This document shows, one piece after another, positions 117-17,498 of a DNA stretch of 64,000 nucleotides; position 1 is the stretch's first letter; every line of letters begins with the position of its first letter. Below the pieces are notes generated by a model that worked only from the letters and a program-made list of their open reading frames with translations, ran no database searches and was not told where the DNA came from. The translations under genes and the position numbers were made by a program. The DNA is from an uncultured delta proteobacterium (GTDB taxonomy: Bacteria; Desulfobacterota; RBG-13-43-22): assembly GCA_963843145.1 (NCBI GenBank), contig CAWJJC010000027.1, forward strand, positions 192,001 to 256,000, read 5' to 3'.

Positions 117-1808
117 TTATAAAAGTTCTTTCAAACACCTGAGAAGTTCCTGGCCATGCGGGACCCCCCAACCTGTCACGGCATCAAAACCCCAGCAGGC
201 TTTATAGGGTTCACAGTAATATTTTCCAGGGCCTGAAACTGCGTTATTCCCTTTTTTAATATCAACGAAGGCGGCGTTGCCGACTTGCTTACCGTTTTTC
301 ATTTTTTTGTAGAGCATGGGAGTCAAGAATGGCAGCTTCTTGTCCGGGGGCAGCTTGGCTTTGATTCGAGCGATGAGCGCGGCCCAGACCGGTGCCGAAG
401 CGCTCGTTTTGCCTTGCGGCCACGACTGCTGGAGAAAAACCAATTGATAATACGGCCAGCCAGCCAGGGCTGACACATCGGGCACCACGCGTTTCTTCCC
501 TCTTGAGTAGTGGTTCGGATCAATATGACCAGTCTCCTGCCAAACCGGGCGATTGAATTTCCTGCAAACGCCGCCTCCGCTTGCGCTTCCCGGAAGCCTT
601 TGTCCGTGCGGATCATCAGGGTCTTTTTTCGAATCTTCCCTCCAGGCGACCTCCTCTAAGGTGGATTTTTCCAACATGGTTCCGCCAACGGCCAACACGT
701 ATGGGCTAGAGCTCGGAAAGTCGACGTGGTAACGGCCATCAGTAATTTGATTCCTCCAACCATCGTCCCCCGAGGCGACGCAGGTGGTGATGCCCTTCCT
801 GCTTACCTGATTCAATAGGGCATCGATTTTAAAGATTTCGCCCTTTGACCATCGACGGTCATCCTCGGCATAACCCCAACTGATAGATAATACGACCGGG
901 GTCGGCCTTGTATGGATCACCTTGGTGAGGAGATCGCACCAGCCCTTCTGTGTGTTTTTGGCAAAGAAGACCAAGATATTCGCCTTGGGACATAAGCCTG
1001 CGATGAGCTCCACATCCATCATCACCTCGAAAGTCATTAGCATTTTTTTTAATCGCAGCTCTGGATCTGGAATGCCGAGGATGTCCTTAAGCGTAAGGAC
1101 CTTGGCACCGGCCTTGGAACCGACCCGGATCAGCTTAATATTGGGAGCACGGGGAGGACGTTTATGTACGACATCCTTGAAATATTTAGTCAAGTCCTCT
1201 CTGAAATATCCCCCGCCAAATTGGGCGATCGCGATGGTCTGGCCCGCACCTTCCCCGAGGGGAAAATTATAATGGTTCGCGATCACCTTCGGTGTCCACG
1301 GTTCTGAAAGCACTTTTTTGCCAGTAGTTAAAGCGACACCTGACTTGGGAAATGCCATTTGTCGTTCGTCAAGCCCAAAGACCCCGGTCACGATTCCCTC
1401 GAGTTCCTTAGGGATTTTGAGCTTTCCCGCCCGGCCGCGATACAGGCCCTGAGTAGGCGATCGCTTCATCTCCCATTGAGGGTCAAAAGCTTTTTTCAAA
1501 TTCTCGGCAGTTCCGTTGACCTGCATGGTGCGCGTTAAGAGGGAGACCTTTTTTACTTTAAGTTTATACTTCTTCTCGAGCACTTCCTTTACCTTGTCGG
1601 CATCTGCCTCTTTGGCGCCAAATTTCTCCTTTAATTCCTTTGGGCTCATGATTCGGCCAGCAAATTCGTCCGGACCAGGAAGTTTCGGCCCCGATAATCC
1701 TATGGTTACGCTAATCTTCTCCCTGGGGTCGATATCGCCGACTTTTTTAGCGGTTGTATCCTTCCCGCGTTCGCTATCTTTTAGGTCCACAAGCGTATTC
1801 TTGGCCAT
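117..1808 (-). CDS. S53 (sedolisin/kumamolisin-like) serine peptidase with N-terminal pro-domain
   Basis: Pro-kumamolisin-like N-terminus (YRGRAGKLKIPKELEGIVTGVFGLDER). Catalytic Glu/Asp in FEVMMDVE, oxyanion Asp in ASGDDG, catalytic Ser in GKTSASAPVWAAL, C-terminal GFDAVTGWG. AGGAGG RBS upstream; no signal peptide. Confidence 0.93.
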   Translation of the reverse strand: MAKNTLVDLKDSERGKDTTAKKVGDIDPREKISVTIGLSGPKLPGPDEFAGRIMSPKELKEKFGAKEADADKVKEVLEKKYKLKVKKVSLLTRTMQVNGTAENLKKAFDPQWEMKRSPTQGLYRGRAGKLKIPKELEGIVTGVFGLDERQMAFPKSGVALTTGKKVLSEPWTPKVIANHYNFPLGEGAGQTIAIAQFGGGYFREDLTKYFKDVVHKRPPRAPNIKLIRVGSKAGAKVLTLKDILGIPDPELRLKKMLMTFEVMMDVELIAGLCPKANILVFFAKNTQKGWCDLLTKVIHTRPTPVVLSISWGYAEDDRRWSKGEIFKIDALLNQVSRKGITTCVASGDDGWRNQITDGRYHVDFPSSSPYVLAVGGTMLEKSTLEEVAWREDSKKDPDDPHGQRLPGSASGGGVCRKFNRPVWQETGHIDPNHYSRGKKRVVPDVSALAGWPYYQLVFLQQSWPQGKTSASAPVWAALIARIKAKLPPDKKLPFLTPMLYKKMKNGKQVGNAAFVDIKKGNNAVSGPGKYYCEPYKACWGFDAVTGWGVPHGQELLRCLKELL

Positions 1809-1846: not shown

Positions 1847-3250
1847 TTATTTTATGTATTTCGTATCGAAGCCCTCAGGTGACCGATTAACTTTCTCAAT
1901 AAATCTATTCCATTTTTCTTCATTAGTCATAAATTCTGCCACCTTGAGCAGGGTCGCTTTCGTAACGGCGCGAATTATGGTGCAAATACTTTCTCGTGGC
2001 GCGTTTAAAGATCCGCAGGCGGCAAAGGTATCTCCATAGCATGGGGAGCACAATTTCTTGGCCCAGCATTGGACACACTTGGGAAAGCTGTCCTTGGAAG
2101 TCTGACTCATCAGCGCTGTCACCCTCCTAAAGTACTCACCTGGAAAATCTCTGTCATAGACGCTTCCCATGTATAGACTTTTGCTCATGACCGTATGGCA
2201 AGGGAATACCTTCCCTGTGCAGTCTACCGTAATCCCCTGGCAACCGGCGTCACAGAAACGGGCTTTCCCCTTCCGGGATGTGAGGGTATTCAAAATATCA
2301 AGCCAATAAGGAATTCTTATCGGGGAATCGGTCAACCAACTATCCATAATCCTCTCGGTCGAAGAAATGTAGCTTTGTTCCAAATCGGATAATAAAGCCT
2401 GATCAAAATATTCATCCGGTGATCCCCCGATGGCAGGGGTTAAGGATATTTCCCGGGCTCCCAAATTAAGTAAAAATTCGTAGATCGATTCGACGGGCTC
2501 CTTACATTCCCTGTGATAGTCAGTGAATACGGCTTGTATCCCGAATGCAACACCCGCATTTCGAAGCAGGTCGATTTTCTTCTTGACTAAGTAATAGGTA
2601 CCTTTCCCTGACGACAATTTGCGCTGCCTGTCATTAATGTGCGGGGGGCCATCCAGACTGATACTCACCGAGAAATGATATTTTTTAAAAAATTCAATCA
2701 TTTTTTGATCGATTAAGGTTCCATTGGTGCTGATCGAGAAATCCGGCATCAGCCTTTGATGGGCCATACAGTATTTTTCACTGGCTCGTACAGCCTCCCT
2801 GATGGCAGCAAAACCGATTAAGGGCTCACCTCCAAAAAACACAAGGCTCTGGACTTCCGGTGCGGTTTTGAATACTTTCTCGATGGCAGCACGGGCAGTA
2901 GCCGGGCTCATGACTCTGCTCTCAGGATGCAAGTCCATGTAGGCCTCGGCAAAACAATAAGAGCATTTGATATTACACGTTTGCGCTACCAATAAAACGA
3001 GGCGAGTGATTTTCGCCGGATCGGCTTTGATTGGATCATCCCTAATTGACTCCTTTAATTGCTCTGAAATGGATACCTCATCAATCGATAGAGAATCGGC
3101 AACCCGAGCCGGCAACGGATACAGGGTGAATGATTCCGTACTGAAGGCGGCGGCATTGAGATTTGACTTGAGGATTTTAATCACAACAAGCTTCCTTTTT
3201 TCGGTCCCATCGAGCTTCAAAGGAAATCGGTGGGGTTTAAGGAACCCCAC
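1847..3250 (-). CDS. Radical SAM/SPASM-domain peptide maturase (CteB/PapB/QhpD-like)
   Basis: CxxxCxxC (CNIKCSYC), FFGGEPL, STNGTL, ISLDGP. SPASM cysteines FCDAG...VFPCH...KCVQCWAKKLCSPC...SIC. Short N-terminal RRE-like segment. Start codon uncertain. Confidence 0.9.
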   Translation of the reverse strand: MGFLKPHRFPLKLDGTEKRKLVVIKILKSNLNAAAFSTESFTLYPLPARVADSLSIDEVSISEQLKESIRDDPIKADPAKITRLVLLVAQTCNIKCSYCFAEAYMDLHPESRVMSPATARAAIEKVFKTAPEVQSLVFFGGEPLIGFAAIREAVRASEKYCMAHQRLMPDFSISTNGTLIDQKMIEFFKKYHFSVSISLDGPPHINDRQRKLSSGKGTYYLVKKKIDLLRNAGVAFGIQAVFTDYHRECKEPVESIYEFLLNLGAREISLTPAIGGSPDEYFDQALLSDLEQSYISSTERIMDSWLTDSPIRIPYWLDILNTLTSRKGKARFCDAGCQGITVDCTGKVFPCHTVMSKSLYMGSVYDRDFPGEYFRRVTALMSQTSKDSFPKCVQCWAKKLCSPCYGDTFAACGSLNAPRESICTIIRAVTKATLLKVAEFMTNEEKWNRFIEKVNRSPEGFDTKYIK

Positions 3251-3435
3251 CGACAGACTGCACTGCTGTGTGACCGGTAAAGACGCCGGTACATGGACAA
3301 GTGGCCTTCATTTTGCGCCCCCCCGCCGTTGAGTCGACACAGACAAATCCAGACTAATGATCGAAAGGGTCAAAGCAGTAAGGGTAACCGTTCTAATTTC
3401 CTTACCCAGAGTCTTGAATACTCCTTGTTGCCTTA

Positions 3436-3696
3436 TCAATAAACTTTTTGCCCTGAGGGGCAGGGTGGAGGAATTGGGCTCGGATTAGGATCAGGAACCT
3501 TCCAATTTTTCTTGGCGGTCAGTATATCCTTGCAATCGTTGTAAGGTATGTCCTTGTAGCCTTTTGCCTGGAAGAAATTGTAAAGTGTTGTTTGGCTCTT
3601 TTTTGACAAGAAATCTCTTACAAGTTTTGGTTTCTTTTCTGTATCAATAATGAAGTTTATAAAATCGCTTCTGTTTCTTTGGGTTATAGACGCCAT
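3436..3696 (-). CDS. Putative RiPP precursor: Nif11-like leader plus Pro-rich core
   Basis: 86 aa with AAGGA RBS. Amphipathic leader DFINFIIDTEKKPKLVRDFLS...YNFFQAKGY..I resembles Nif11/NHLP-clan leaders; tail NWKVPDPNPSPIPPPCPSGQKVY. Directly upstream of the rSAM-SPASM gene. Confidence 0.65.
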   Translation of the reverse strand: MASITQRNRSDFINFIIDTEKKPKLVRDFLSKKSQTTLYNFFQAKGYKDIPYNDCKDILTAKKNWKVPDPNPSPIPPPCPSGQKVY

Positions 3697-3907: not shown

Positions 3908-4973
3908 CTAGGTTCCCAAAATCGGTTGTCCCATGGCCAGACTATCCAGAACCCGACGGCAATAGGGTTTATCCGGGTAAAAGTCTCCATACCCTTGCGG
4001 GGGCCGAATCATTCCATTCTTCTTACAAAGTCGGACATATGGGCACGATGGACAGGTCGTATCATCCGGCGCAACGGTCATTCGATATCCCTCGGAAGCC
4101 AGTACTTTTTGAATCATACCGAACTTGTATCTGCCCAGGCTATTTCTGTTGGAGTGCACCACACTAATATGTCGGTTGGCCATGACAATCAGGCATCCCT
4201 CGCGGTAGAGGGGAGGGACCCGAGGGATCCAGGGCATCTTGAGCATCTGAGAAACGACATTGGCCAGAGGGTTCTTCTTCACAATGGCACGGAAACCGCC
4301 CACGTCCAGAAGCGCAACCATTCGCACCAGTCTCACGAAGTCTTCCGGTTCAAGAAGCTCTTCCGATAGGGCAAAGGCGCCATTCTCTGTCCTGATAAGC
4401 TGTATGAGAATTAGATAGTCAATACTTGGAAATCTCCTAAACAGATCATCAACGAAAAGAGGCAGCTCCAACAGCAGGCTTTTTGTAACTGTTGTGAAAA
4501 TGGTAAGATCAATTCCCCTATTGACCGCCTCCTCAATGCCCCGCATCGTCCTTCGATGGGATCCCTTTCCCCGTATGCGGTCATGCAAGGCTTCGGGGCC
4601 ATCTAGGCTGATGGACATCGAAAAAAAGCTGCCGTAGTCGGCGAATCTTTTGCTGATCTCTTCCGTAATGAGTGTTCCATTGGTATTCAGGAAGATTGTT
4701 TCGTCATCCGACTTTAAAGCCATGGTCCAGGGTCTCGAACAAGCCTTCCCAGAGCAGGGGCTCACCCCCTGTAATATGCAGGTGACGGTATCCGGCATCA
4801 TCTCCTTCGACTATTATCTCTTTGACCAAATTGACGGGGAGAGTAGAGCTTCTGGAGATACTAGAGCGGGCAAAACAGTGCACACAGGAGCCGTTGCATC
4901 GAGTGGTCACTTCTATAGAGAGTTTTTCTTGCCCCACTCCTCGACAGATTTCATCTGAAGTGGTCCCCTTCAT
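3908..4973 (-). CDS. Radical SAM protein with short C-terminal Cys cluster, split by a 1-nt insertion near 4705
   Basis: The N-terminal part (ORF 4704..5012) has CNGSCVHC and ITGGEPLL. The C-terminal part (ORF 3908..4801) has NTNGTL, SISLDGP and CPSCPYVRLC. Removing base 4705 gives continuous GFKVGYETIFLNTNG. ATG overlaps the upstream stop (TGATG). Confidence 0.85.
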
Positions 4974-5965
4974 CAGCGATTCTCCCCATTCCTCAACGGT
5001 TTCAAAAGGCAACGAAGCTCATCAGCGAAGCCTGCAAGACCGCAATAATCCGCCCTGGCTGCGGCTGATTCCAGCTCGCCGCATATCCTCTCCCTGATTT
5101 TATCGATCATCCCGTTGATCAGGATATAATTAAGAACCCTTCCGGCAGGGCCGCCCTTTCGGTTCACTTTTTCGTCCTTGACTCGGTCCCATTTTTTCCT
5201 GATGTCGTTGGGAAGACAGGTGTACAGGGAAGAATGGGTTCCCTTTATCAAATCCTTCTCGATGTCCTGCAGATCATCGAGCAGCCTCCAGGCAATGCCG
5301 AAGGAGGAATAGACCGTCTGAACAGATCGAGAAAATTCTTCATTACCGGCGATTCTTTTGGCCATCAGGACGGGGGCGATCAGCCAGGTGGCCATCTGTT
5401 TCTTAAAGAAATCGCAATAGCTATCCAGAGACTCCGTTTGATCAGATGTGTCAATGCTGGAATAATAATCTTCGATAAAATCATAAACAATTGCCGGCCC
5501 ATCTTCCACTCCCCTGGCCAGTCTCTCGAAGCCATGGTTCATGATCATCCAGGATTGGCTTCTTAAAAGGAGGGCCAGGTGTGAAACAGGCAATTGTCCA
5601 TCGGTAAGATGGTCGTCAAAAGCATGAAGGAACATGGCCATGGTATGACCGGTCTTTGCATCTTTAATAAATTTTGTGCCCAGTTTTTTGTTTCCCGGAC
5701 AGGACCGATGGAGCCAAAAAAGGATCGACCAGGCTGGCGCGTAGAAGTAGTTGACAAAACTAAGGCCGTCACTAAGGGAAGCATGCAGGTATTTCATCAA
5801 GAACAGGGTTGCCTTGGTCCGCATGGATTGAGGCAAGTATTCACAGAATGACAGGATTTCCCGATTCAGCTCTCCACGGAAGGTTTCTTCTTCTCGGGAG
5901 AGGCCCACAGCGCCAAAATCGATCCGGGAGCAGAATGACAACATATCGGCGATCCTGCCTCTCAT
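4973..5965 (-). CDS. Class I isoprenoid synthase-fold protein (trans-IPPS/ComQ-like prenyltransferase candidate)
   Basis: Two Asp-rich motifs, FLHAFDDHLTDG and WRLLDDLQDIEKD, in an all-helical ~330-aa protein. TGATG overlap with the cyclase stop codon. Confidence 0.8.
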   Translation of the reverse strand: MRGRIADMLSFCSRIDFGAVGLSREEETFRGELNREILSFCEYLPQSMRTKATLFLMKYLHASLSDGLSFVNYFYAPAWSILFWLHRSCPGNKKLGTKFIKDAKTGHTMAMFLHAFDDHLTDGQLPVSHLALLLRSQSWMIMNHGFERLARGVEDGPAIVYDFIEDYYSSIDTSDQTESLDSYCDFFKKQMATWLIAPVLMAKRIAGNEEFSRSVQTVYSSFGIAWRLLDDLQDIEKDLIKGTHSSLYTCLPNDIRKKWDRVKDEKVNRKGGPAGRVLNYILINGMIDKIRERICGELESAAARADYCGLAGFADELRCLLKPLRNGENR

Positions 5966-8900
5966 CAAAAACCCCTCATCTCGACCAGTCGATCTATTTC
6001 TTCCAGATATGTTTCCATTTTCATTTCTTCATACCAGGCCCGTGCCTTCCCCAGATACGCCTCTCCCTTGATATTATCGAGCTTCTTATACTGGGCCTTT
6101 TCTTCGAGCAGGCATCTGCCAACCTCGAAGTAAAGCCTGGCCAGTTGAGGACGCGCCCCCAGGCGCTCCCCTTCCTGAACCGCTCTATGCCACCATCCGA
6201 GAGCTTTTTTGTGGTCATTGATCGTCCAGTAATAGGCTCCAGTAAGCCTGTACGAATCGGTCCGATGATAGGCCACTTTACGAGCAACCCTTCCCAGTGA
6301 TCTGATGGATTTGATGGCTTCCCTCTGGAATTTATCCATTTCCTCTCGATTTCCGCTTTTGGTTGATTCCCTCAAACAGTAGAGGTTATATTCCAGGTGA
6401 GTCTTAAAACAGTACGATATTTGAAAAGGGGCCGTTTCGGTTTGAACCCTAATTCTGTCGGCCTGTTCAAGGCACTCCTCCGCCTTATCGATTGCATTCA
6501 TCATGATGTGTATCCATGCCTGGAATGTATGGAACCCCCACCAAAAATTTGAATGTGCTTTTTGCCCAAAAGCAATTCCCTTTTCGCTCTCTATCAAAGC
6601 ATCATTGAGCTTCCCGGACTCGATCAGCAGCATCGTGCTAATCTCATATTTAAATACCTCGGAAAGACTATTCCCATAGACTTCGTAGAGATTTTGCAAT
6701 CTGTCCATGATCGCCCTGGCCTTGTCGAAGGAACCCTGGCAGATAGTGCCAAGGCCATGCCAGAACAAATATTGTGAGGCATTATAGATTTCTCCAATCC
6801 TGCAGTTCTTGTCTACGAGATCATCGTCATAATCCTTTAAGGCTTTCCAATTCCCCCCAAGGAAATGGTGTACCGTCTCGCAGACCTCATACATGGTGTA
6901 ATTCGTGACATCGCTTCGGCTGACGGTGTCGCTCAAAGCATTCAATGCCTTTTTGCTCAAGGCAAATGAAATTCCAGAATATGCAAACAAAGCGCTTGCC
7001 ATTACGAAGATCCCATAACCCTCTCGGAATTTTCGAAGATCGAAGGAACTGATGAACCTAAACAAATAGAAATATTCAATGAAAAATCTCTTGGCGTTGG
7101 TTAGGGATATGGAATTGATCTTTTTGGAGAACAGATCGACGATTTCGACATCTCGCTCCGTCGGCGTTTTCTTGAACTTCAGGAAGGGAAGGTGCAGGGA
7201 AACAAGAAAATGGGAAAAAGCCCACGAGAGCTTAATTAATTCAAAAACCGTGGCTTTAGGTAATTTCCCCCAGTAATAATCCAAGGTTTTGTCAAAATGC
7301 CTGATAGCCTCCTGGTGTTGCCCCCGGTTATATAAGGCCAGAGCAATGTTCTTTTCCAACATGGCCACCTTTTCGGGGTCAGCATTTTTGCCGGACTTTT
7401 TCAAATAGAGTTGGAGAGCTTCCTCATAATAATGCAGGGCCTCATCCGAGGCGGCTGATCGCAGGGCCTCCTCACCGGCCTTGATCAAGTATTCCTCGGC
7501 TTTCTCCAGACTCTCGGCCCGACAGTAATGATAGGCGAGCATGCCGTAGAACTCGTGAATTCGCTCGCTAAAGATTTTTTCTATGGACTGGGCCACTTTT
7601 TGGTGGATCTCTTTTCTCCTCTGGATCAGGATGGACTCATAGACCGCCTCTTGAGTTAAGGCGTGCGCAAAGAGATACTCTACCTCCTCCATTCGCTTCC
7701 TTTCCCTTATGAGCTGAATCTCCTTGAGGGCCTCGAGCCTGCTGTCGACCTTCTCGATGTGCCCGGCCACCGCGGTAAGGATCCGGTAGAAGAAGTTCCT
7801 GCCGATGACGGAGGCGATCCGGACCAGATTCTTTGTTCCTTCATCCAGCCGGTCGATACGGGCCATAATGAGGGCATGGATGCTCTGAGGAATGACGATA
7901 TCCTCGATCTTTTCCGTGACCCGGTATTCTCCCTTTTCCTGAACCACGGCCCTTTCAATGATCAAGGATCGCACTACTTCTTCAATAAAGAAGGGATTCC
8001 CTCCTGCTCTTTGGAGAATCTGCTCTCTCAGTAGATGGGGAAAACTTTTAATCTCGAGAAGATTATTGAGCAGTTGCCCACTCTCCGATTCTTTCAAGGG
8101 TTCCAGTTCGATCTTGGTCCAGTTGGTTGCATAGTTCTCCTGGATGAAGGCGATGATCCGCTCTCCGGTGTCGGTATAGCCGGGACGGAAGACTATAATA
8201 AAAAGAATCCGGCATTCTTCCACCAGGCGGAAGAGGGCCTTGAGAAGTTCTAGGGAACTCGTATCCACCCAGTGGAAGTCTTCCATATAGATCATCATTG
8301 GTCTGACTTCAGAGCCCCTAATGAGCAGCTCCCGCATGCTCCTAAAGATAAGCTTTTCTAAGGCCTCCCCTTCGATGCCCAGAACCCGCTGGGCGGATTT
8401 TTCGTTAAGCTTCATCCCCATGAGGGTAGCAATGAAGGGAAAGATCTCCCCGGCTTCCTCGGGATGAATGTCCCGAATGGCCCGCTCAAGTTTCCACTGG
8501 GCCTCTGCATCGGTGTCCTTGCCCCTGATCTGGGACCAATACTTCAAGGCGTCGACGATGGGATAAAAGCTTAGGCTTCTCCCCATGGAAATGGCACGAC
8601 CTTCGAGGAAGACGGTCTTTTTGACGGCTGCTGTTTGGCGCAGTTCGGCCAGAAGGCGGGACTTCCCGATCCCCGGCTCGCCGATGACGGTGATAATCCC
8701 TCCCTGACCATTGATGAGGCGAACGACCTGAAGCGATAGGAGATCCATTTCCTTCTCTCTTCCTACTAGAGGGGAATCAAAACCCACCGATCGCCTTGTT
8801 TTTTCCTTTTTCCCCACTACCCGATAAATCTTTACTGGTTCGGTCTTGCCTTTGACCCGAGCGGGGACGAGCGGTTCAAAATCAAAAAGCCAATCAGCCC

Positions 8901-9549
8901 GACGAAAGGTGTTGTGACCCACTAAAATCTCACCGGGCCGCGCCAGCGTAGACAACCGGGATGCCAGATTAACCGTATCTCCGGTAATTCCAAGGATTCC
9001 CTTTCCCAATGTTACTTCACCGGTAACGACCAGTCCTGTATTGATCCCTGAATGCATGGCCAAACGCTTTCCGACCGTGTACTCAAATTGAGGACTAATG
9101 TCCTCGATCCGTTCATGTATTTCTCTCGCCGCTCGGATCGCTCTAACCGGATCATCCTCATGAACCTTGGGCACCCCAAAGAACGCTACCACCGCATCAC
9201 CGATAAATTTCTGAATAGTCCCCTCATATTTACTCACTGTATCGCTCATCTCACCGAAGATCCGGTTCATGATCTTTTTAACCTCTTCAGGATCCAACCG
9301 CTCAGACATGGCCGTATATCCGGAGAGATCAGAGAAAAGAACCGTCACCTGCTTTCGTTCCTCTTCGATGGCTGATTCTATCTGTCTGGCAGCTAATACA
9401 TCTAATTGCCGCCCGCACCTGCCGCAGAACTGAAATCCCTCGGGATTTACGAAATGGCAGGCAGGGCAAATCCCCTCCAATTTGGTACCACATTTTCCAC
9501 AAAAATCCAGGCCATCGGGGTTATGATATTGGCATTGGGGGCATTTCAT
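5965..9549 (-). CDS. Double zinc ribbon + class III adenylate/guanylate cyclase + STAND AAA ATPase + TPR protein
   Basis: CPQC..CGKC..CPAC..CGRC; VTVLFSDLSGYT, KFIGDAVVAFF, GDTVNLASRL; Walker A GEPGIGKS, Walker B YMEDFHW; helical TPR C-terminus. Confidence 0.93.
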   Translation of the reverse strand: MKCPQCQYHNPDGLDFCGKCGTKLEGICPACHFVNPEGFQFCGRCGRQLDVLAARQIESAIEEERKQVTVLFSDLSGYTAMSERLDPEEVKKIMNRIFGEMSDTVSKYEGTIQKFIGDAVVAFFGVPKVHEDDPVRAIRAAREIHERIEDISPQFEYTVGKRLAMHSGINTGLVVTGEVTLGKGILGITGDTVNLASRLSTLARPGEILVGHNTFRRADWLFDFEPLVPARVKGKTEPVKIYRVVGKKEKTRRSVGFDSPLVGREKEMDLLSLQVVRLINGQGGIITVIGEPGIGKSRLLAELRQTAAVKKTVFLEGRAISMGRSLSFYPIVDALKYWSQIRGKDTDAEAQWKLERAIRDIHPEEAGEIFPFIATLMGMKLNEKSAQRVLGIEGEALEKLIFRSMRELLIRGSEVRPMMIYMEDFHWVDTSSLELLKALFRLVEECRILFIIVFRPGYTDTGERIIAFIQENYATNWTKIELEPLKESESGQLLNNLLEIKSFPHLLREQILQRAGGNPFFIEEVVRSLIIERAVVQEKGEYRVTEKIEDIVIPQSIHALIMARIDRLDEGTKNLVRIASVIGRNFFYRILTAVAGHIEKVDSRLEALKEIQLIRERKRMEEVEYLFAHALTQEAVYESILIQRRKEIHQKVAQSIEKIFSERIHEFYGMLAYHYCRAESLEKAEEYLIKAGEEALRSAASDEALHYYEEALQLYLKKSGKNADPEKVAMLEKNIALALYNRGQHQEAIRHFDKTLDYYWGKLPKATVFELIKLSWAFSHFLVSLHLPFLKFKKTPTERDVEIVDLFSKKINSISLTNAKRFFIEYFYLFRFISSFDLRKFREGYGIFVMASALFAYSGISFALSKKALNALSDTVSRSDVTNYTMYEVCETVHHFLGGNWKALKDYDDDLVDKNCRIGEIYNASQYLFWHGLGTICQGSFDKARAIMDRLQNLYEVYGNSLSEVFKYEISTMLLIESGKLNDALIESEKGIAFGQKAHSNFWWGFHTFQAWIHIMMNAIDKAEECLEQADRIRVQTETAPFQISYCFKTHLEYNLYCLRESTKSGNREEMDKFQREAIKSIRSLGRVARKVAYHRTDSYRLTGAYYWTINDHKKALGWWHRAVQEGERLGARPQLARLYFEVGRCLLEEKAQYKKLDNIKGEAYLGKARAWYEEMKMETYLEEIDRLVEMRGF

Positions 9550-9871: not shown

Positions 9872-11234
9872 TCAGAATCCAATTTTGCTGCTGATCGTTA
9901 CCACCCGTTCCCGAATTTCTTCCCAATCCAGCGTCAACAGCTTTCGCTGCCGCATCACCATTTGCCCGGCAATAAAAACCGTGTCTACATCCGCCCCGGA
10001 GGCCGCATAGACTAAGTGGGAAAAGGGATGGTAGAGGGGGGTCAAATGGGGTTGGTTTAGATTGATCAAAATCAAATCCGCCTGTTTGCCCACTTCCAAA
10101 GAACCGATTTCTTTTTCCAGCCCCAGGACCTTGGCCGCCTCGAGGGTGGCCATTTCCAGGACGGAATGGGCCTCCAACACGGTAGGGTCGAGGCGATGGA
10201 CCTTGTGCAGGCGAGCGGCGGTGCCCATTTCCCGGAAGAGATCCAGGTCATTATTGCCGGCACAGCCGTCCGTGCCCAACCCCACGACTATCCCTCGGGC
10301 CAGCAGTTCCACAACCGGGGTGACCCCCGCCCCCAGCTTCATATTGCTTTCCGGGCAATGGCTAACACGTGTCCCCGCTTCGGCCAGGAGTGCCATTTCC
10401 TCCAGATCCGGATAATTCACATGGACCCCGATAGTGGAATCATCCAGACAACCCAACCTATGCAAATAACGAACCGGGGTCAGACCGGTTTGACCCTGGA
10501 CCAGGGCCACCTCCTCCCGGGTTTCCGCCAGGTGAATAAATAAAGGAATCGCCTTTTCCAGGGCCAGGGCCTTGGCCTTTTCCAGGGTCTTCGCGGAGCA
10601 GGTGTAAGGAGAATGGGGGAACAACCCCAGTCGGATCCCGAGGAGATTGTCCGGACCATTTTTCGATGAAATCCCGGGCCGAACGGATATTGTCGGCCGG
10701 GTCCGGGACACCCGGGGCCGGAAAATCAATCACCCCCGGGGCCAGGACAGCCCGCATGCCGGACTGATAAATCGCTCGGGCGGCGCCATCCAGGCAAAAA
10801 TAGCCGTCGGCCAGGGTGGTGGTCCCGGAGCGGATCATTTCAGCGCAGGCCAGGAGGCTTCCCCAGTAAACCGTCTCCGGGTTGATAAACCGGGCCTCCG
10901 CGGGGAAGATGTGCTTTTCCAGCCAGTCCTTCAGGGGCAGGTCGTCGGCCAGACCCCGGAAAAGGGTCATGGCCGAATGGGTGTGGGTATTGATCAGCCC
11001 CGGCAGGACCAGGAACCCCCGGCCGTCAATCACTTCCCGGGCCGTCCAGAGCTCCGGACAACGGGCGCCGAGATACGTAATCCGGCTGTCTTTGATGCCT
11101 ATGGAGCCGGTCGGAATCGGGTCGGGATGAGCCGGGGACAGGGTTAGGATCAGTCCGTCCTTGATCAAAAAATCAAAATCCTCCTCGACAGGCCCTTGTT
11201 GCGAGGGTAGTTTCGAATTTTGATATTTGGTCAT
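9872..11234 (-). CDS. Amidohydrolase, MTA/SAH deaminase (MtaD)-like, paralog 2; +1 frameshift near 10638
   Basis: PGLINTHTH, FPHSPYTC, IHLAET, HCPESNMKL, GLGTDG motifs spread over ORFs 10458..11234 and 9872..10729. Removing one G from CGGGATC restores SPRIRLGLFPH. Confidence 0.85.
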
Positions 11235-11292: not shown

Positions 11293-12636
11293 CTAATTTA
11301 GCCGGGCCAGCCGCAAAGACTCGGCGAAACGATTCGCCCGGGATAAAATTTCTTTAAGATCCAGGGTCAACAGCTCCCGGTTCTTCATCACCGTTCGGCC
11401 ATTGATGATCACCCGGGTGACATCGGCGCCCCGAGCCGCGTAGACTAGATGGGAATAGATGTTATAAAGTGGTGTCAGGTGCGGTTGATCCAGGTCCAAG
11501 AGTATAATATCGGCCTTTTTTTCGGCCTCCAGGGACCCCACCCGGGATTCCAGCCCCAGCACCCGGGCACCGCCGCGGGTAGCCATCCGGAACACGGTGC
11601 GGGCATCCATGACAGTGGGATCCAGACGATGGACCTTATGCAGTTTGGCCGCCGAATCCATTTCCTGAAACAAGTCCAAATTGTTGTTGCTGGCGCAGCC
11701 GTCGGTCCCCAGGCCGACGCAAACCCCCCGGCGTAACAGCTCTACCACCGGGGCCACCCCGGAGGCCAGTTTCATATTACTTTCCGGGCAATGGACCACC
11801 TTGACCCCCGCGGCCGCCAGGGTTTTCTGGTCGGCTTCCGGGAGCACCACGCAGTGAACGGCGATTAGATGCGCGTCGAGCAACCCCAATCGGGCCAGGT
11901 GCTGGGTCGGCGAGACCCCGTATTGTTTCAAAATCTGATCTGCTTCGGTTTGGGTTTCCGCCAGGTGGATGATCAGGGGAACCCCGGTTTCAGCCGACAA
12001 CCTTTTGGCCTGGAGGAGCAACTCCGGGCCGCAGGTGAACGGGGTGTGGGGTTCAACGGCCACAGAAATCAGGGGGTCATCCCGGTATTTCCGGATCAAC
12101 TCACGAGTATATTCAAACCCCTTTTCCAGGGGCCCGTAATTGGGGGAGGGAAAATCGTAAAGCACTTCTCCCACCAAAGCCCGCAGGCCGGCCTCCTGGG
12201 CGGCCCGAGCCACCTGGCCCTCGAAAAGGTACATGTCGCAGAAGGTGGTGGTACCGGACAAGATCATCTCCGCGCAAGCCAGCAAGGTCCCCCAATAGAC
12301 CCATTCCCCGGTCAGGCGGCGTTCCGCCGGAAAGATATGGTTTTCCAGCCAATCCATCAGCGGCAGGTCGTCGGCCAAGCCGCGCAGCAAGGTCATGGCC
12401 GCATGGGTATGGCTATTGATCAAACCGGGCAAAACGGCCCCTCCGCGGGCATCAACGACTTCCTTGGCCTTTAAGGCCAACGGCGCCAGCTCTTGTTCCG
12501 GTCCTACGGCCAAGATAGAATCTCCGCTAATCGCCAGGGCCCCGGGATGAAAAATATTCAGCCGGTCATCCATGGTGACTACCAGGCCGTTTTTTATGAA
12601 TAGATCAATGGGTTTTTCTGATATCCGAACGCTCAT
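11293..12636 (-). CDS. mtaD: Amidohydrolase, MTA/SAH deaminase (MtaD)-like, paralog 1
   Basis: PGLINSHTHAAMTLLRGLADDLPL, EPHTPFT, IHLAET, HCPESNMKLASG, GTDGCASNN; adjacent to PNP. Confidence 0.85.
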   Translation of the reverse strand: MSVRISEKPIDLFIKNGLVVTMDDRLNIFHPGALAISGDSILAVGPEQELAPLALKAKEVVDARGGAVLPGLINSHTHAAMTLLRGLADDLPLMDWLENHIFPAERRLTGEWVYWGTLLACAEMILSGTTTFCDMYLFEGQVARAAQEAGLRALVGEVLYDFPSPNYGPLEKGFEYTRELIRKYRDDPLISVAVEPHTPFTCGPELLLQAKRLSAETGVPLIIHLAETQTEADQILKQYGVSPTQHLARLGLLDAHLIAVHCVVLPEADQKTLAAAGVKVVHCPESNMKLASGVAPVVELLRRGVCVGLGTDGCASNNNLDLFQEMDSAAKLHKVHRLDPTVMDARTVFRMATRGGARVLGLESRVGSLEAEKKADIILLDLDQPHLTPLYNIYSHLVYAARGADVTRVIINGRTVMKNRELLTLDLKEILSRANRFAESLRLARLN

Positions 12637-12721: not shown

Positions 12722-13576
12722 TTAGCTTTTAATTTTCCTCCCGCCCTTCAGCTCCTGCGGGGTCAATTTGGAAACCACCCCTTCGACCAGGGCCATCAAT
12801 CGGGGTTCGGCTTTTCGCGCCGTGGCAATAATGGCCTTCAGCGAAGCGGGCTCCTGGCAGTCCGGTCGGTTGACGTTGGAAATGACCGATATTCCCAGAA
12901 TTCGCAGACGGCACTGCACCGCGGTAATAACTTCCAGGACGGTGGACATGCCCACGGCTTGGGCCCCCATCTGTCTGAGCATTCGCGTTTCCGCCGGCGT
13001 CTCCAGGCTGGGTCCCTTGACCGCTACGTAGACCCCCCGGCGAAGCGGGATTTGTTTCTGCAGAGCCACTTTTTCGGCCAGGTCCGTCAAGCGGCGGTCA
13101 TAAACGGCGGAGAGGTCGGGAAAACGGTCTCCCCAATACTCCTGGTGGGAACCTACCAGAGGATTCTCTCCGGTAAGATTGATGTGATCCATGATCAGCA
13201 TCAGATCCCCGGACTCGAACCCGGGGTCCAGACCCCCGGCGGCATTGGAAACGATCAGGACCTTCACGCCTAATCCGGCCAGTACCCGAATAGGGAAACC
13301 GATCTCCTGGGGCGCATAGCCTTCATAGAGATGGAACCGGCCCTGAAGGGCGACTACCGGTTTACCGGCCAGGGTCCCCCAAACCAACTGGCCCTGATGG
13401 GACTCCACGGTGGAATGGGGGAAATAGGGTATTTGCTCATAGGGGATGGACCGGGCCTTTTTGATCCCGCCAGCCGACTCACCCAGACCGGTGCCCAGGA
13501 TAAGTCCGATGGGGGCCACGCCACCCATTTTCTTCTTCAAGTAGGAGACTGTTTTTAGAAATCGTTCTTTGTTCAT
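12722..13576 (-). CDS. punA: Purine-nucleoside phosphorylase (trimeric PNP I family)
   Basis: LILGTGLG, QGRFHLYEGY, SNAAGG, DHINL, GPSLETPAE, AVGMST. Likely start MNKERF at 13576. Confidence 0.9.
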   Translation of the reverse strand: MNKERFLKTVSYLKKKMGGVAPIGLILGTGLGESAGGIKKARSIPYEQIPYFPHSTVESHQGQLVWGTLAGKPVVALQGRFHLYEGYAPQEIGFPIRVLAGLGVKVLIVSNAAGGLDPGFESGDLMLIMDHINLTGENPLVGSHQEYWGDRFPDLSAVYDRRLTDLAEKVALQKQIPLRRGVYVAVKGPSLETPAETRMLRQMGAQAVGMSTVLEVITAVQCRLRILGISVISNVNRPDCQEPASLKAIIATARKAEPRLMALVEGVVSKLTPQELKGGRKIKS

Positions 13577-13862
13577 AGTTTCCTTTCCTTTGAGGCTTAG
13601 CTGAGGCCTGGATTCTGGATCGCGCTTCGCTTGTCCGGAATAACGAGCTGACGCGACTCGTTTAAAGCCTATTTTCATGCTTAGCGGGTGCTCTCTGGAG
13701 CCGGTGGGTTTAATACGAAAATCCTCCCTCTTGACGGCACCAGTTGCAGAATAATGATTTATGCTTTAATATACTAAAAAAAATTGTTGAACAAGAAATT
13801 TTATCCCAACGAACCTCCCTTTCCCCTGGCAAGGGAGGGTTGAATTTTAGGGGGATTTTTCC

Positions 13863-16390: not shown

Positions 16391-17498
16391 CTATGAATTC
16401 GGATTTTTCTTTTTCTTGGTCCGGAGCCACAAAAAAGCTTCAATAAAGGGATCAATATTTCCGTTTAAGACACTGTCCACATTTCCTATTTCCAATTGAG
16501 TTCGGTGATCTTTCACCAGTCGGTAAGGAGCTAAGGTGTATGAACGGATTTGGCTCCCCCAAGAAATCTCCGATTGCCCTTCGTGGAGTTCTCGCTTTTT
16601 TTCTTCTTTTTTCTGCAACTCCAATTCGTAGAGGCGTGATTTCAACACCTTAAAGGCCATATCCTTGTTCCGGTGCTGAGACTTTTCGTTCTGGCATTGG
16701 ACGACGATCCCGGTGGGAAAATGGGTCAGCCGAATTGCCGAACTGGTTTTATTGACGTGCTGACCGCCGGCGCCGCTGGCTCGAAAAGTATCCACCCGCA
16801 CATCCGCCTCATTGACTTCAATATCGAGGTCCTCTTCCACTTCGGGATAAACAAAAACGGAGGCAAAGGAGGTGTGCCGCCGTCCTCCGGCATCGAAGGG
16901 AGAGATTCGGACCAGTCGGTGAATCCCGGTTTCAGAGTGAAGATACCCGTAGGCGTATTTCCCTTCCACGGTAAAGGTCACGCTTTTGGTGCCGGCCTCA
17001 TCCCCGGGAAGCATATCGATCACTTCGGTCTTGTAGTTCCGCGTTTCCGCCCAGCGCAGATACATGCGTAAAAGCATTTCGGCCCAATCCTGGGCCTCGG
17101 TACCGCCGGCCCCGGCATGAATGGCCACAATGGCATTGTTGATGTCGGTTTCCCCGGAAAGTAGCTTAGTAAACTCCATCTGCGAAAGCTTTTTTTCGAG
17201 GGCCCCCAGCTTCTCCCGGACCTCGGCGAGCGTCTCGCTATCCGCCTCTTCCTGGGCCAGATCAAGGAGGATATCCGTTTCCTCCAATTGGTCCCGAGTC
17301 TCCTCCCATTCGCCGAGGGCGTTGAGGATTTTTCCCCGCTCCTTCAATAAAACCCGGGCTTGCTCGGGCTGGTTCCAGAATTGGTCTTGGGCGATCGCCT
17401 TTTCTAAGACTTGTAAACGGGCCTGTTTCCCTTCCAGGTCAAAGATATTCTCCCAATTTAAATAATCGGTCTTTGGCCTGATCTATTTCTTCGCGCAT
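16391..17498 (-). CDS. prfB: Peptide chain release factor 2 with programmed +1 frameshift
   Basis: SPF and GGQ motifs. ORF1 ATG CGC GAA...TAT CTT TGA C with the slippery site at 17438-17444 and an upstream purine-rich SD-like GGGAGA; the +1 frame continues DLEGKQARLQ...FWNQPEQA. Confidence 0.96.

Follow-up and report, generated by a model that had tools for sequence, protein, structure and literature searches.

What does a protein with the two metal-binding motifs of isoprenoid synthesis do when its gene overlaps that of a radical S-adenosylmethionine (SAM) enzyme and a small peptide gene lies close by? The question is raised by a locus of an uncultured delta proteobacterium (Desulfobacterota, lineage RBG-13-43-22; GenBank assembly GCA_963843145.1), situated in a stretch of 64,000 nucleotides (contig CAWJJC010000027.1, positions 192,001 to 256,000 of the forward strand) that is here called the window and from whose first letter all coordinates are counted. 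A preliminary description of the window had pointed to a protein encoded at 4973-5965, of divergent trans-isoprenyl-diphosphate-synthase (IPPS) fold, and had considered that it could be a ComQ-like peptide prenyltransferase acting on a neighbouring peptide, or else a terpene cyclase. As far as sequences tell, the gene is part of a widespread cassette with strict three-way coupling between an IPPS-fold enzyme, a radical SAM enzyme and a peptide that ends in tyrosine. Our tentative reading, to which we assign a probability of about 0.45, is that a class-I prenyl-diphosphate enzyme of trans-IPPS fold, together with its radical SAM partner, modifies the C-terminal Tyr of the precursor peptide, in which case the attached group would probably be lipid-like. 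The reading is built on fold, motifs and gene context, and the function is a prediction for every member of the family.

Conserved metal-binding motifs

The open reading frame (ORF) of 330 codons is located on the minus strand (4973-5965), with an ATG at 5965 and a TGA stop at 4975-4973. The A of its ATG is also the last base of the TGA that ends the upstream gene for a protein of 1194 residues (TGATG), and its own TGA overlaps the ATG at 4973 of the downstream radical SAM gene, again as TGATG. From the translation, an AlphaFold2 model and a structure search, the product is a divergent IPPS-fold protein resembling those named 'class 1 isoprenoid biosynthesis enzyme'.

The motifs DDHLTD and DDLQD, already noted in the preliminary description, are residues 117-122 (nucleotides 5600-5617, within FDDHLTDG) and 230-234 (nucleotides 5264-5278, within LLDDLQDIEKD). 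Translation combined with an alignment of 77 homologues, 25-82% identical to the query, delimits metal-binding motif 1 as H114-A-F-D117-D118-H119-L-T-D122 (5600-5626, minus strand) and metal-binding motif 2 as W226-R227-L-L-D230-D231-L-Q-D234-I-E-K-D238 (5252-5290, minus strand). H114, H119, D122, Y167, A225, R227, D230, D231, D234 and D238 are invariant in 77 of 77 sequences, and D117, D118, R135, W139 and W226 are conserved in at least 90%. The extended motifs H..DDH..D (HxxDDHxxD) and [WF]R..DD..D...D are found in 74 and 75 of the 77 homologues, respectively. The seven acidic residues of the two motifs, together with R135 and R227, are thus retained in all or nearly all homologues, even at only 25% identity, which argues for a live metal and diphosphate site, and the conservation indicates that the Asp-rich motifs are more than chance.

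Two features of the 77-member family are unusual: the pair of invariant histidines (H114 and H119) within motif 1, and the extra invariant D238, which places D230, D234 and D238 at i, i+4, i+8 spacing. The metal triad NSE/DTE of terpene cyclases, (N/D)Dxx(S/T)xxxE on the helix that faces DDxxD, is spaced in the same way, but here all three residues are Asp.

A trans-IPPS fold without elongation residues

The AlphaFold2 model obtained from a 77-row alignment (predicted local distance difference test score, pLDDT, 94.8; predicted template modelling score 0.93) retains an all-alpha trans-IPPS fold. When about 48,000 chains were searched with VIA-align, the best match was geranylgeranyl diphosphate synthase (GGPPS) 3n3d, with Z 22.2, a root mean square deviation of 2.9 over 284 aligned residues and 11% identity. 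Ranks 1-41 were occupied by IPPS-type prenyltransferases and their subunits, while class I terpene cyclases reached Z values of at most 12.5. MoeN5 (5b02, Z 17.8) and Ord1 (9v4g, Z 16.8), enzymes with acceptors other than isopentenyl diphosphate (IPP), fell inside the IPPS group. All top matches in Foldseek were likewise IPPSs (best E 1.7e-5), so the check by structure prediction and Foldseek that had been proposed with the preliminary description bore out the fold it had assigned.

Elongating IPPSs bind IPP and diphosphate through a GGKR motif, an RRG motif after motif 1, a KT motif and an FQ pair before motif 2, and the two canonical IPPSs of the same genome show GGKR, RRG, KT and FQ..DD. 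The reported absence of GGKR and RRG from the 330-residue protein proved to hold for the whole alignment, since G[GA]KR occurs in 0 of 77 members and an RRG-like triplet no more than 15 residues past motif 1 in 0 of the 74 members that carry motif 1. When the family profile was aligned to the genome's own IPPS, over residues 181-236 only, KT was found replaced by Q190-M191 and FQ by W226-R227, and motif 2 aligned with FQ..DD..D. Because of the structure search, the motif counts and this alignment we consider that the protein has preserved the fold and both metal motifs but lost the residues with which IPP is bound and chains are elongated.

The fold and the two Asp-rich motifs are also what an ordinary chain-elongating synthase of farnesyl diphosphate (FPP) or geranylgeranyl diphosphate would show, but such an identity is extremely improbable. 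GGKR, RRG, KT and FQ are all missing or replaced, and with 15.3 bits (E 0.012) the match to the Pfam model polyprenyl_synt (PF00348) stays below the cut-off of 27 and spans only residues 174-238. Moreover, the genome already has two canonical IPPS genes, the only ones found in it with PF00348 (243.7 and 181.3 bits), and the family is patchily spread: of the 401 genomes sampled from the phylum, 8 have a strong match. Membership in PF00348 was rejected on score and elongation residues, albeit the fold and the two Asp-rich motifs are present.

A terpene synthase or cyclase, which would make or cyclise a terpenoid, either free or attached to the peptide, instead of transferring a prenyl group to Tyr, is improbable too. 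The triad-like spacing of D230, D234 and D238 would suit it, as would the weak Pfam matches over residues 175-251, which are sub-threshold for both Terpene_syn_C_2 (PF19086; 14.0 bits, cut-off 23.7) and Terpene_synth_C (PF03936; 12.1 bits, cut-off 26.3). At E <= 0.01 the latter model matches 5 of the 77 members (best E 8.9e-7), and one cluster of relatives in the Atlas search with homologue P0080 is auto-named 'Terpene synthase', all others being unnamed or auto-named. Both Pfam cut-offs for class I terpene cyclases were thus missed. The structural likeness is to IPPSs (Z 22) rather than to cyclases (Z at most 12.5), the cassette holds no other terpenoid genes, and a free terpene would leave unexplained why the gene is strictly coupled to a peptide and to a peptide-type radical SAM enzyme.

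A large and divergent family

The family comprises 722 proteins at E <= 0.001 among clusters at 90% identity, 2 of which NCBI calls 'class 1 isoprenoid biosynthesis enzyme'; clustering at 50% identity gives 252 groups. PF00348 at E <= 0.01 matches only 4 of the 77 aligned members. The 330-residue protein itself matched no family in NCBIfam and, in a single-sequence search, no PDB sequence at E <= 10, while the family profile picked up IPPS chains weakly (best E 0.0025, residues 174-240).

The gene is present as a single copy in its own genome, and strong matches were found in 2 of 13 other sampled genomes of the window's own taxonomic family. Such a patchy distribution is as expected for a putative accessory trait. 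The commonest phyla among the look-alike clusters found in the Atlas with P0080 were Thermodesulfobacteriota, Myxococcota and Actinomycetota, and a tblastn search against plasmids gave no match. Homologue P0114 and one member of the 77-sequence alignment showed weak matches to Pfam DUF5685 (PF18937, function unknown), which may belong to this fold as a distant branch. A role in defence was considered and dropped; PADLOC was blank for the 330-residue protein, and its neighbours bore only generic resemblance to cyclase (PycC) and radical SAM (pVip) components.

An inseparable radical SAM partner

The gene directly downstream of the IPPS-fold gene, here called rSAM1 (3908-5012, minus strand, with the likely true start at the ATG at 4973), encodes a radical SAM protein with a CX3CX2C motif and a C-terminal CX2CX5C motif. 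Its frame is split; Pfam Radical_SAM matches both pieces, and tblastn aligns them in two frames to the intact orthologue of locus L001. The CX2CX5C motif makes it 'SPASM-like' on reading of the sequence, and Pfam SPASM was not matched. Its nearest named relatives are the decarboxylases BlsE (37.8 bits in a comparison with PDB sequences), AhbD (93.8 bits) and MftC (70.4 bits, cut-off 265), the likeness being weak and the AhbD and MftC scores far below the cut-offs.

The gene order was compared in 11 genome loci and in 80 metagenome loci at 49-86% identity; all loci examined were at about 37% identity or more, most of them at 49% or more. Wherever a metagenome locus extends 300 nucleotides or more downstream of the IPPS-fold gene, rSAM1 comes directly next (69 of 69); it does so too in 10 of 11 genome loci, among them L040, where the contig ends within the IPPS-fold gene. 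Directly upstream, a gene for a protein with cyclase, AAA and TPR domains was found in 10 of 11 genome loci and in 59 of 60 metagenome loci with at least 300 nucleotides of upstream sequence, the exception having the small peptide ORF described below inserted in between. The eleventh genome locus, L041 (G295:C44, 7317-7520), retains the cyclase/AAA/TPR gene and a fragment of 68 residues of the IPPS-fold protein with an internal stop, but has no rSAM1, and its sequence has the appearance of a decaying cassette.

The coupling also extends to gene fusions. Ten homologues of long or odd length were inspected, of which five are fused to Radical_SAM and three to flavoprotein domains, the remaining two being without an added domain. 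P0163, which belongs to the three flavoprotein fusions, scores 140.7 bits with the geranylgeranyl reductase (GGR) family (cut-off 158.8) and 73.4 bits with QhpG, a peptide-Trp hydroxylase. Among the distant fusions P0163, P0232 and P0269, one partner is thus GGR/QhpG-like, and the other two are FAD_binding_4 domains of VAO/PCMH type. GGR-like and VAO/PCMH-type families act on prenyl chains or phenols.

A DNA alignment with loci L062 and L001 shows a single additional base in the window's rSAM1 near 4704-4706, which leads to an in-frame TGA. Public soil-metagenome contigs (from four DNA runs of one study, with small shares) do not bridge 4700-4736, and no RNA run with the locus was listed in the sequencing-run search. 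An Amidohydro_1 gene farther upstream is split likewise into overlapping ORFs (9872-10729 and 10458-11234, minus strand) in a frameshift-like manner, and this second split gene is a hint that the assembly contains indel errors.

A precursor peptide ending in tyrosine

Beyond rSAM1 lies an ORF for a peptide of 86 residues (3436-3696, minus strand), recognised from an ORF alignment and a leader model as a precursor whose leader is conserved and whose core, which contains ...PPPCPSGQKVY, is variable; its C-terminal Tyr is encoded at 3439-3441. When ten precursors (from the window and nine genome loci) were aligned they shared a conserved leader of about 60 residues, followed by a variable core with Tyr as the last residue in 10 of 10. 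The 86-residue precursor is the sole match of the leader model in its own genome (E 1.6e-25).

The 80 metagenome loci, with both strands counted, contain 3575 small ORFs, which were then scanned with a model confined to the leader columns. It matched 44 ORFs (41 of them unique), and all 44 end in Tyr, compared with 72 of the 3531 other small ORFs (2.0%). Of the 41 loci that continue for 800 nucleotides or more past a complete rSAM1, 38 have a leader match, and the other three carry a divergent Tyr-ended ORF in the same place. In front of the terminal Tyr, eleven different residues occur across the 41 unique sequences (G 12, S 7, A 5, K 4, C 3, R 3, N 2, E 2, H 1, Y 1, D 1; no Val), and only 10 of the 41 have a Trp within their last 25 residues. 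A Nif11-type leader (PF07862), first suspected by eye, was discarded, as the model reached only one of the ten precursors (E 0.028) and NCBIfam gave no match.

The window and part of the other loci contain an optional second radical SAM maturase (467 residues, 1847-3250, minus strand) that resembles PapB, nif11-rSAM and QhpD below their cut-offs, scoring 186.8 bits against the PapB-type thioether maturases (cut-off 340). Of the 80 metagenome loci, 16 carry this gene at an identity of 45% or above. The last 15 core residues include a Cys in 15 of these 16 loci, versus 5 of 20 that have room for the gene but lack it. The co-occurrence fits the sub-threshold likeness to PapB and suggests a thioether cross-link as the putative modification of the Cys. 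The core Cys precedes the terminal Tyr by 6-12 residues, and a PCPxxxxY-like motif is frequent (loci L044-L088). Because the second maturase tracks the core Cys and the terminal Tyr is universal, the C-terminal Tyr appears to be the one conserved target left for the IPPS-fold protein and rSAM1.

A precursor with conserved leader and variable core, beside maturases that resemble PapB, nif11-rSAM, QhpD and MftC below the respective cut-offs, corresponds to what defines a gene cluster for a peptide made by ribosomes and modified after translation (RiPP). When the IPPS-fold protein and the precursor were submitted as alignments to complex prediction the score was 0.50, compared with 0.01 for the best of three controls, the partner pLDDT was at least 69, and the runs agreed in at least 60% of contacts. 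The verdict was 'weak support', with no interface given, as the band of scores up to 0.60 contained 18 of 157 solved pairs and also both of the 2 mismatched pairs (of 215) that passed.

Proposed reaction and its alternatives

We propose that the IPPS-fold enzyme and the downstream rSAM1 would form one working unit with the adjacent small precursor as substrate, the former being a catalytically competent enzyme of ionisation type that would have given up binding and adding IPP. rSAM1 would first activate or decarboxylate the terminal Tyr. A short prenyl diphosphate, which could come from the canonical FPP-type synthase of the genome, would then be ionised on the two Asp-rich motifs, and the prenyl cation would be passed to the phenol or enamide derived from Tyr; here we infer the donor of the prenyl group, the atom that accepts it, the sequence of the steps and the decarboxylation. 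In clusters like that of the window, the second radical SAM enzyme would thereafter cross-link the nearby Cys, and an S53 peptidase would remove the leader. The isoprenoid side of the proposal is supported by the GGR-like fusion partner of P0163, a sub-threshold lead, and the peptide side by the strict synteny and the fusions and, weakly, by the predicted complex. The earlier suggestion that the enzyme modifies the neighbouring peptide has thereby gained ground as far as the link itself is concerned.

Several observations weigh against the proposal. No Pfam or NCBIfam model scores above its cut-off, so that the term 'prenyl diphosphate' is carried by fold and motifs alone, and the fusion partner of P0163 is ambiguous as isoprenoid evidence because it is also QhpG-like. 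We know of no IPPS or terpene synthase with invariant His inside motif 1, and H114 and H119 could mean another metal or another chemistry. The likeness of rSAM1 to decarboxylases is weak and mainly concerns the generic radical SAM core. Since rSAM1 is frameshifted, the cassette may be inactive in this window, and since many loci are close relatives (L003, L080 and L081 share one precursor) the counts given above overstate the independence of the loci. Finally, the intact second motif with D230, D234 and D238 is unlike that of ComQ, StheQ and Ord1, where one metal site suffices (10.64898/2026.08.29.745113).

The invariant histidines, atypical for Mg-diphosphate sites, are also the starting point for an explanation without any isoprenoid, in which the protein would be an accessory, substrate-presenting or otherwise catalytic subunit of rSAM1, with, for example, a His/Asp metal site that binds the leader or the carboxylate of the Tyr. 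The inseparability from rSAM1, up to fusion, would be natural for such a subunit, as would the failure of every isoprenoid family model to reach its cut-off; rSAM1 is moreover devoid of an N-terminal extension for leader recognition, as read from its sequence, and no PqqD-like protein was seen among the ORFs scanned in the window. On the other hand, non-catalytic partners usually lose catalytic motifs, whereas both Asp clusters as well as R135 and R227 are kept here down to 25% identity. Two facing Asp-rich helices are the established diphosphate-ionising site of this fold, and one fusion partner is close to the GGR family. Taken together, we hold an accessory role to be unlikely.

A different fate of the Tyr would be a scaffold-peptide route, in which a prenylated, Tyr-derived small molecule (a cofactor or signal) is built on the peptide and then cut off, as in the case of mycofactocin or pearlins. 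It would account for the fact that the last core residue alone is conserved and the penultimate one variable, and it would agree with the resemblance of rSAM1 to MftC, AhbD and BlsE, with the cytoplasmic-looking S53 peptidase in six loci, and with the VAO and GGR/QhpG-type flavoprotein fusions of distant members. Hypervariable cores are, however, normal in ordinary RiPPs too, the peptidase is absent from most loci, and the tracking of the core Cys by the second maturase (15 of 16 versus 5 of 20) implies, for those clusters, a product that includes the core peptide itself. We regard this route as rather improbable.

Comparison with known peptide prenyltransferases and mycofactocin

To our knowledge, Trp is the only residue at which IPPS-fold enzymes are known to prenylate peptides (ComQ, PalQ and StheQ). 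Enzymes of this fold that prenylate aromatic residues of peptides do exist, and include PalQ (PMC10853753; 10.64898/2026.08.29.745113). PalQ of Paenibacillus alvei is a C-terminal Trp prenyltransferase of the isoprenoid synthase superfamily that is encoded beside a RiPP precursor and was formerly annotated as 'terpene synthase' (PMC10853753). It resembles the family described here in having an adjacent precursor and an aromatic C-terminal residue, for which PalQ is strict and which is a conserved Tyr in our case. It differs in its Trp target, and the available part of the PalQ paper mentions no radical SAM partner; the comparison is by description, not by sequence.

ComQ and StheQ, Trp prenyltransferases for pheromones of ComX type, have a first aspartate-rich motif (FARM) combined with a pseudo-second aspartate-rich motif (pseudo-SARM, NDXXX), and thus a single Mg site and no second metal site, and Ord1 is called StheQ-like and uses the metals on the FARM side (10.64898/2026.08.29.745113). 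With these enzymes the family shares the trans-IPPS fold, a FARM-type motif 1, the loss of elongation and an adjacent small precursor. A gene for a sensor or regulator is also found at the locus in both cases, ComP/ComA for ComQ and the cyclase/AAA/TPR protein here. As far as the description in that source goes, the family is set apart from ComQ and StheQ by its invariant DDxxD plus D238 in place of a pseudo-SARM; the acceptor would be Tyr instead of Trp, and the family has an obligate and sometimes fused radical SAM partner, of which that description makes no mention for ComQ. The preliminary idea of a ComQ-like enzyme is therefore not upheld in the sense of family membership, because the second DDxxD is intact, the conserved candidate acceptor is Tyr and not Trp, and the radical SAM partner is obligate. 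What remains of the initial interpretation, in part supported, is a non-elongating, peptide-linked IPPS-fold enzyme.

Structurally, the StheQ-like Ord1 is more distant (Z 16.8) than GGPPS (Z 22.2) in a comparison that included no chain of ComQ, PalQ or StheQ. GGPPS 3n3d and other canonical trans-IPPSs have two Asp-rich motifs on facing helices like the family, but are only 9-14% identical to it and are not known to have the two His of motif 1 and the extra D238. Ord1 and MoeN5, which have the same fold and transfer prenyl groups to acceptors other than IPP, are no closer than ordinary IPPSs, and their acceptors are small molecules.

Mycofactocin biosynthesis (MftA/MftC) resembles the cassette in combining a small peptide that has an invariant C-terminal Tyr with a SPASM-type radical SAM enzyme. 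In contrast, rSAM1 scores far below the cut-off for MftC, the penultimate Val of the Val-Tyr end is not conserved, and MftB, MftD, MftE and MftF-like genes were not seen. We know of no IPPS-fold enzyme in the mycofactocin pathway. A literature search, which did not cover subscription-only papers, found no description of a cassette that combines a Tyr-ended peptide with an IPPS-fold and a radical SAM enzyme.

Other genes of the cassette and its surroundings

On the minus strand the order of genes is cyclase/AAA_16/TPR, IPPS-fold, rSAM1, the ORF for 86 residues, the second radical SAM maturase and the S53 peptidase. The first of these (5965-9549, minus strand) encodes, according to Pfam, a protein of 1194 residues with a double zinc ribbon, a class III nucleotide cyclase domain, a STAND-like AAA_16 domain and TPR repeats. 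Through the TGATG overlap it is translationally coupled to the cassette in the window. It partially matches the TOMM kinase/cyclase model TIGR03903 (305 bits, cut-off 705.75), and could be a sensor of the product rather than a generic regulator.

If it is, the cassette might constitute a self-contained signalling or cofactor system in which the IPPS-fold enzyme and rSAM1 would make a prenylated and decarboxylated phenol or quinone-like molecule from the Tyr of the scaffold peptide, with the cyclase/STAND/TPR protein as its intracellular receptor giving a cyclic-nucleotide signal. We consider this elaboration to be a long shot.

The last gene (117-1808, minus strand) encodes an S53/S8 peptidase of pro-kumamolisin type (563 residues; Pfam Pro-kuma_activ and Peptidase_S8), with no obvious signal peptide on reading of its sequence, and is present also in L001, L049, L050, L062 and L070. 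It is a candidate leader peptidase. A GC-rich stem-loop of 12 pairs (3226-3254, minus strand), found by a consensus scan only, lies in the gap between the precursor and the second maturase, overlaps the start of the maturase gene and could be an attenuator of read-through. Nothing above shuffled sequences was found in the scan for promoters and terminators.

Farther upstream on the minus strand are the split Amidohydro_1 gene (9872-11234), an intact paralogue of 447 residues (11293-12636) and a PNP_UDP_1 phosphorylase gene (12722-13678), which we take to be deaminase and phosphorylase-like genes for methylthioadenosine and 5'-deoxyadenosine, and which would presumably salvage the by-product of radical SAM enzymes. 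An ORF of 318 residues with SPF and GGQ motifs (16391-17347, minus strand), judged from its translation only, is release factor 2-like without the N-terminal part; this presumably reflects the expected programmed +1 frameshift of prfB.

Implications

Peptide prenylation is of importance for quorum-sensing biology and for tools for late-stage lipidation of peptides. If a prenyl-diphosphate enzyme and a radical SAM enzyme do modify the terminal Tyr, the acceptor residue, the partnership of enzymes and the RiPP class would all be new, and, if true, it would be the first Tyr-directed and the first radical-SAM-coupled peptide prenylation by the IPPS fold. Should this reading be wrong, the invariant His/Asp site points to a chemistry new for the fold. 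Were the more far-reaching signalling function to be true, ComQXPA-like logic would be realised with entirely different parts in anaerobic Desulfobacterota and in other phyla.

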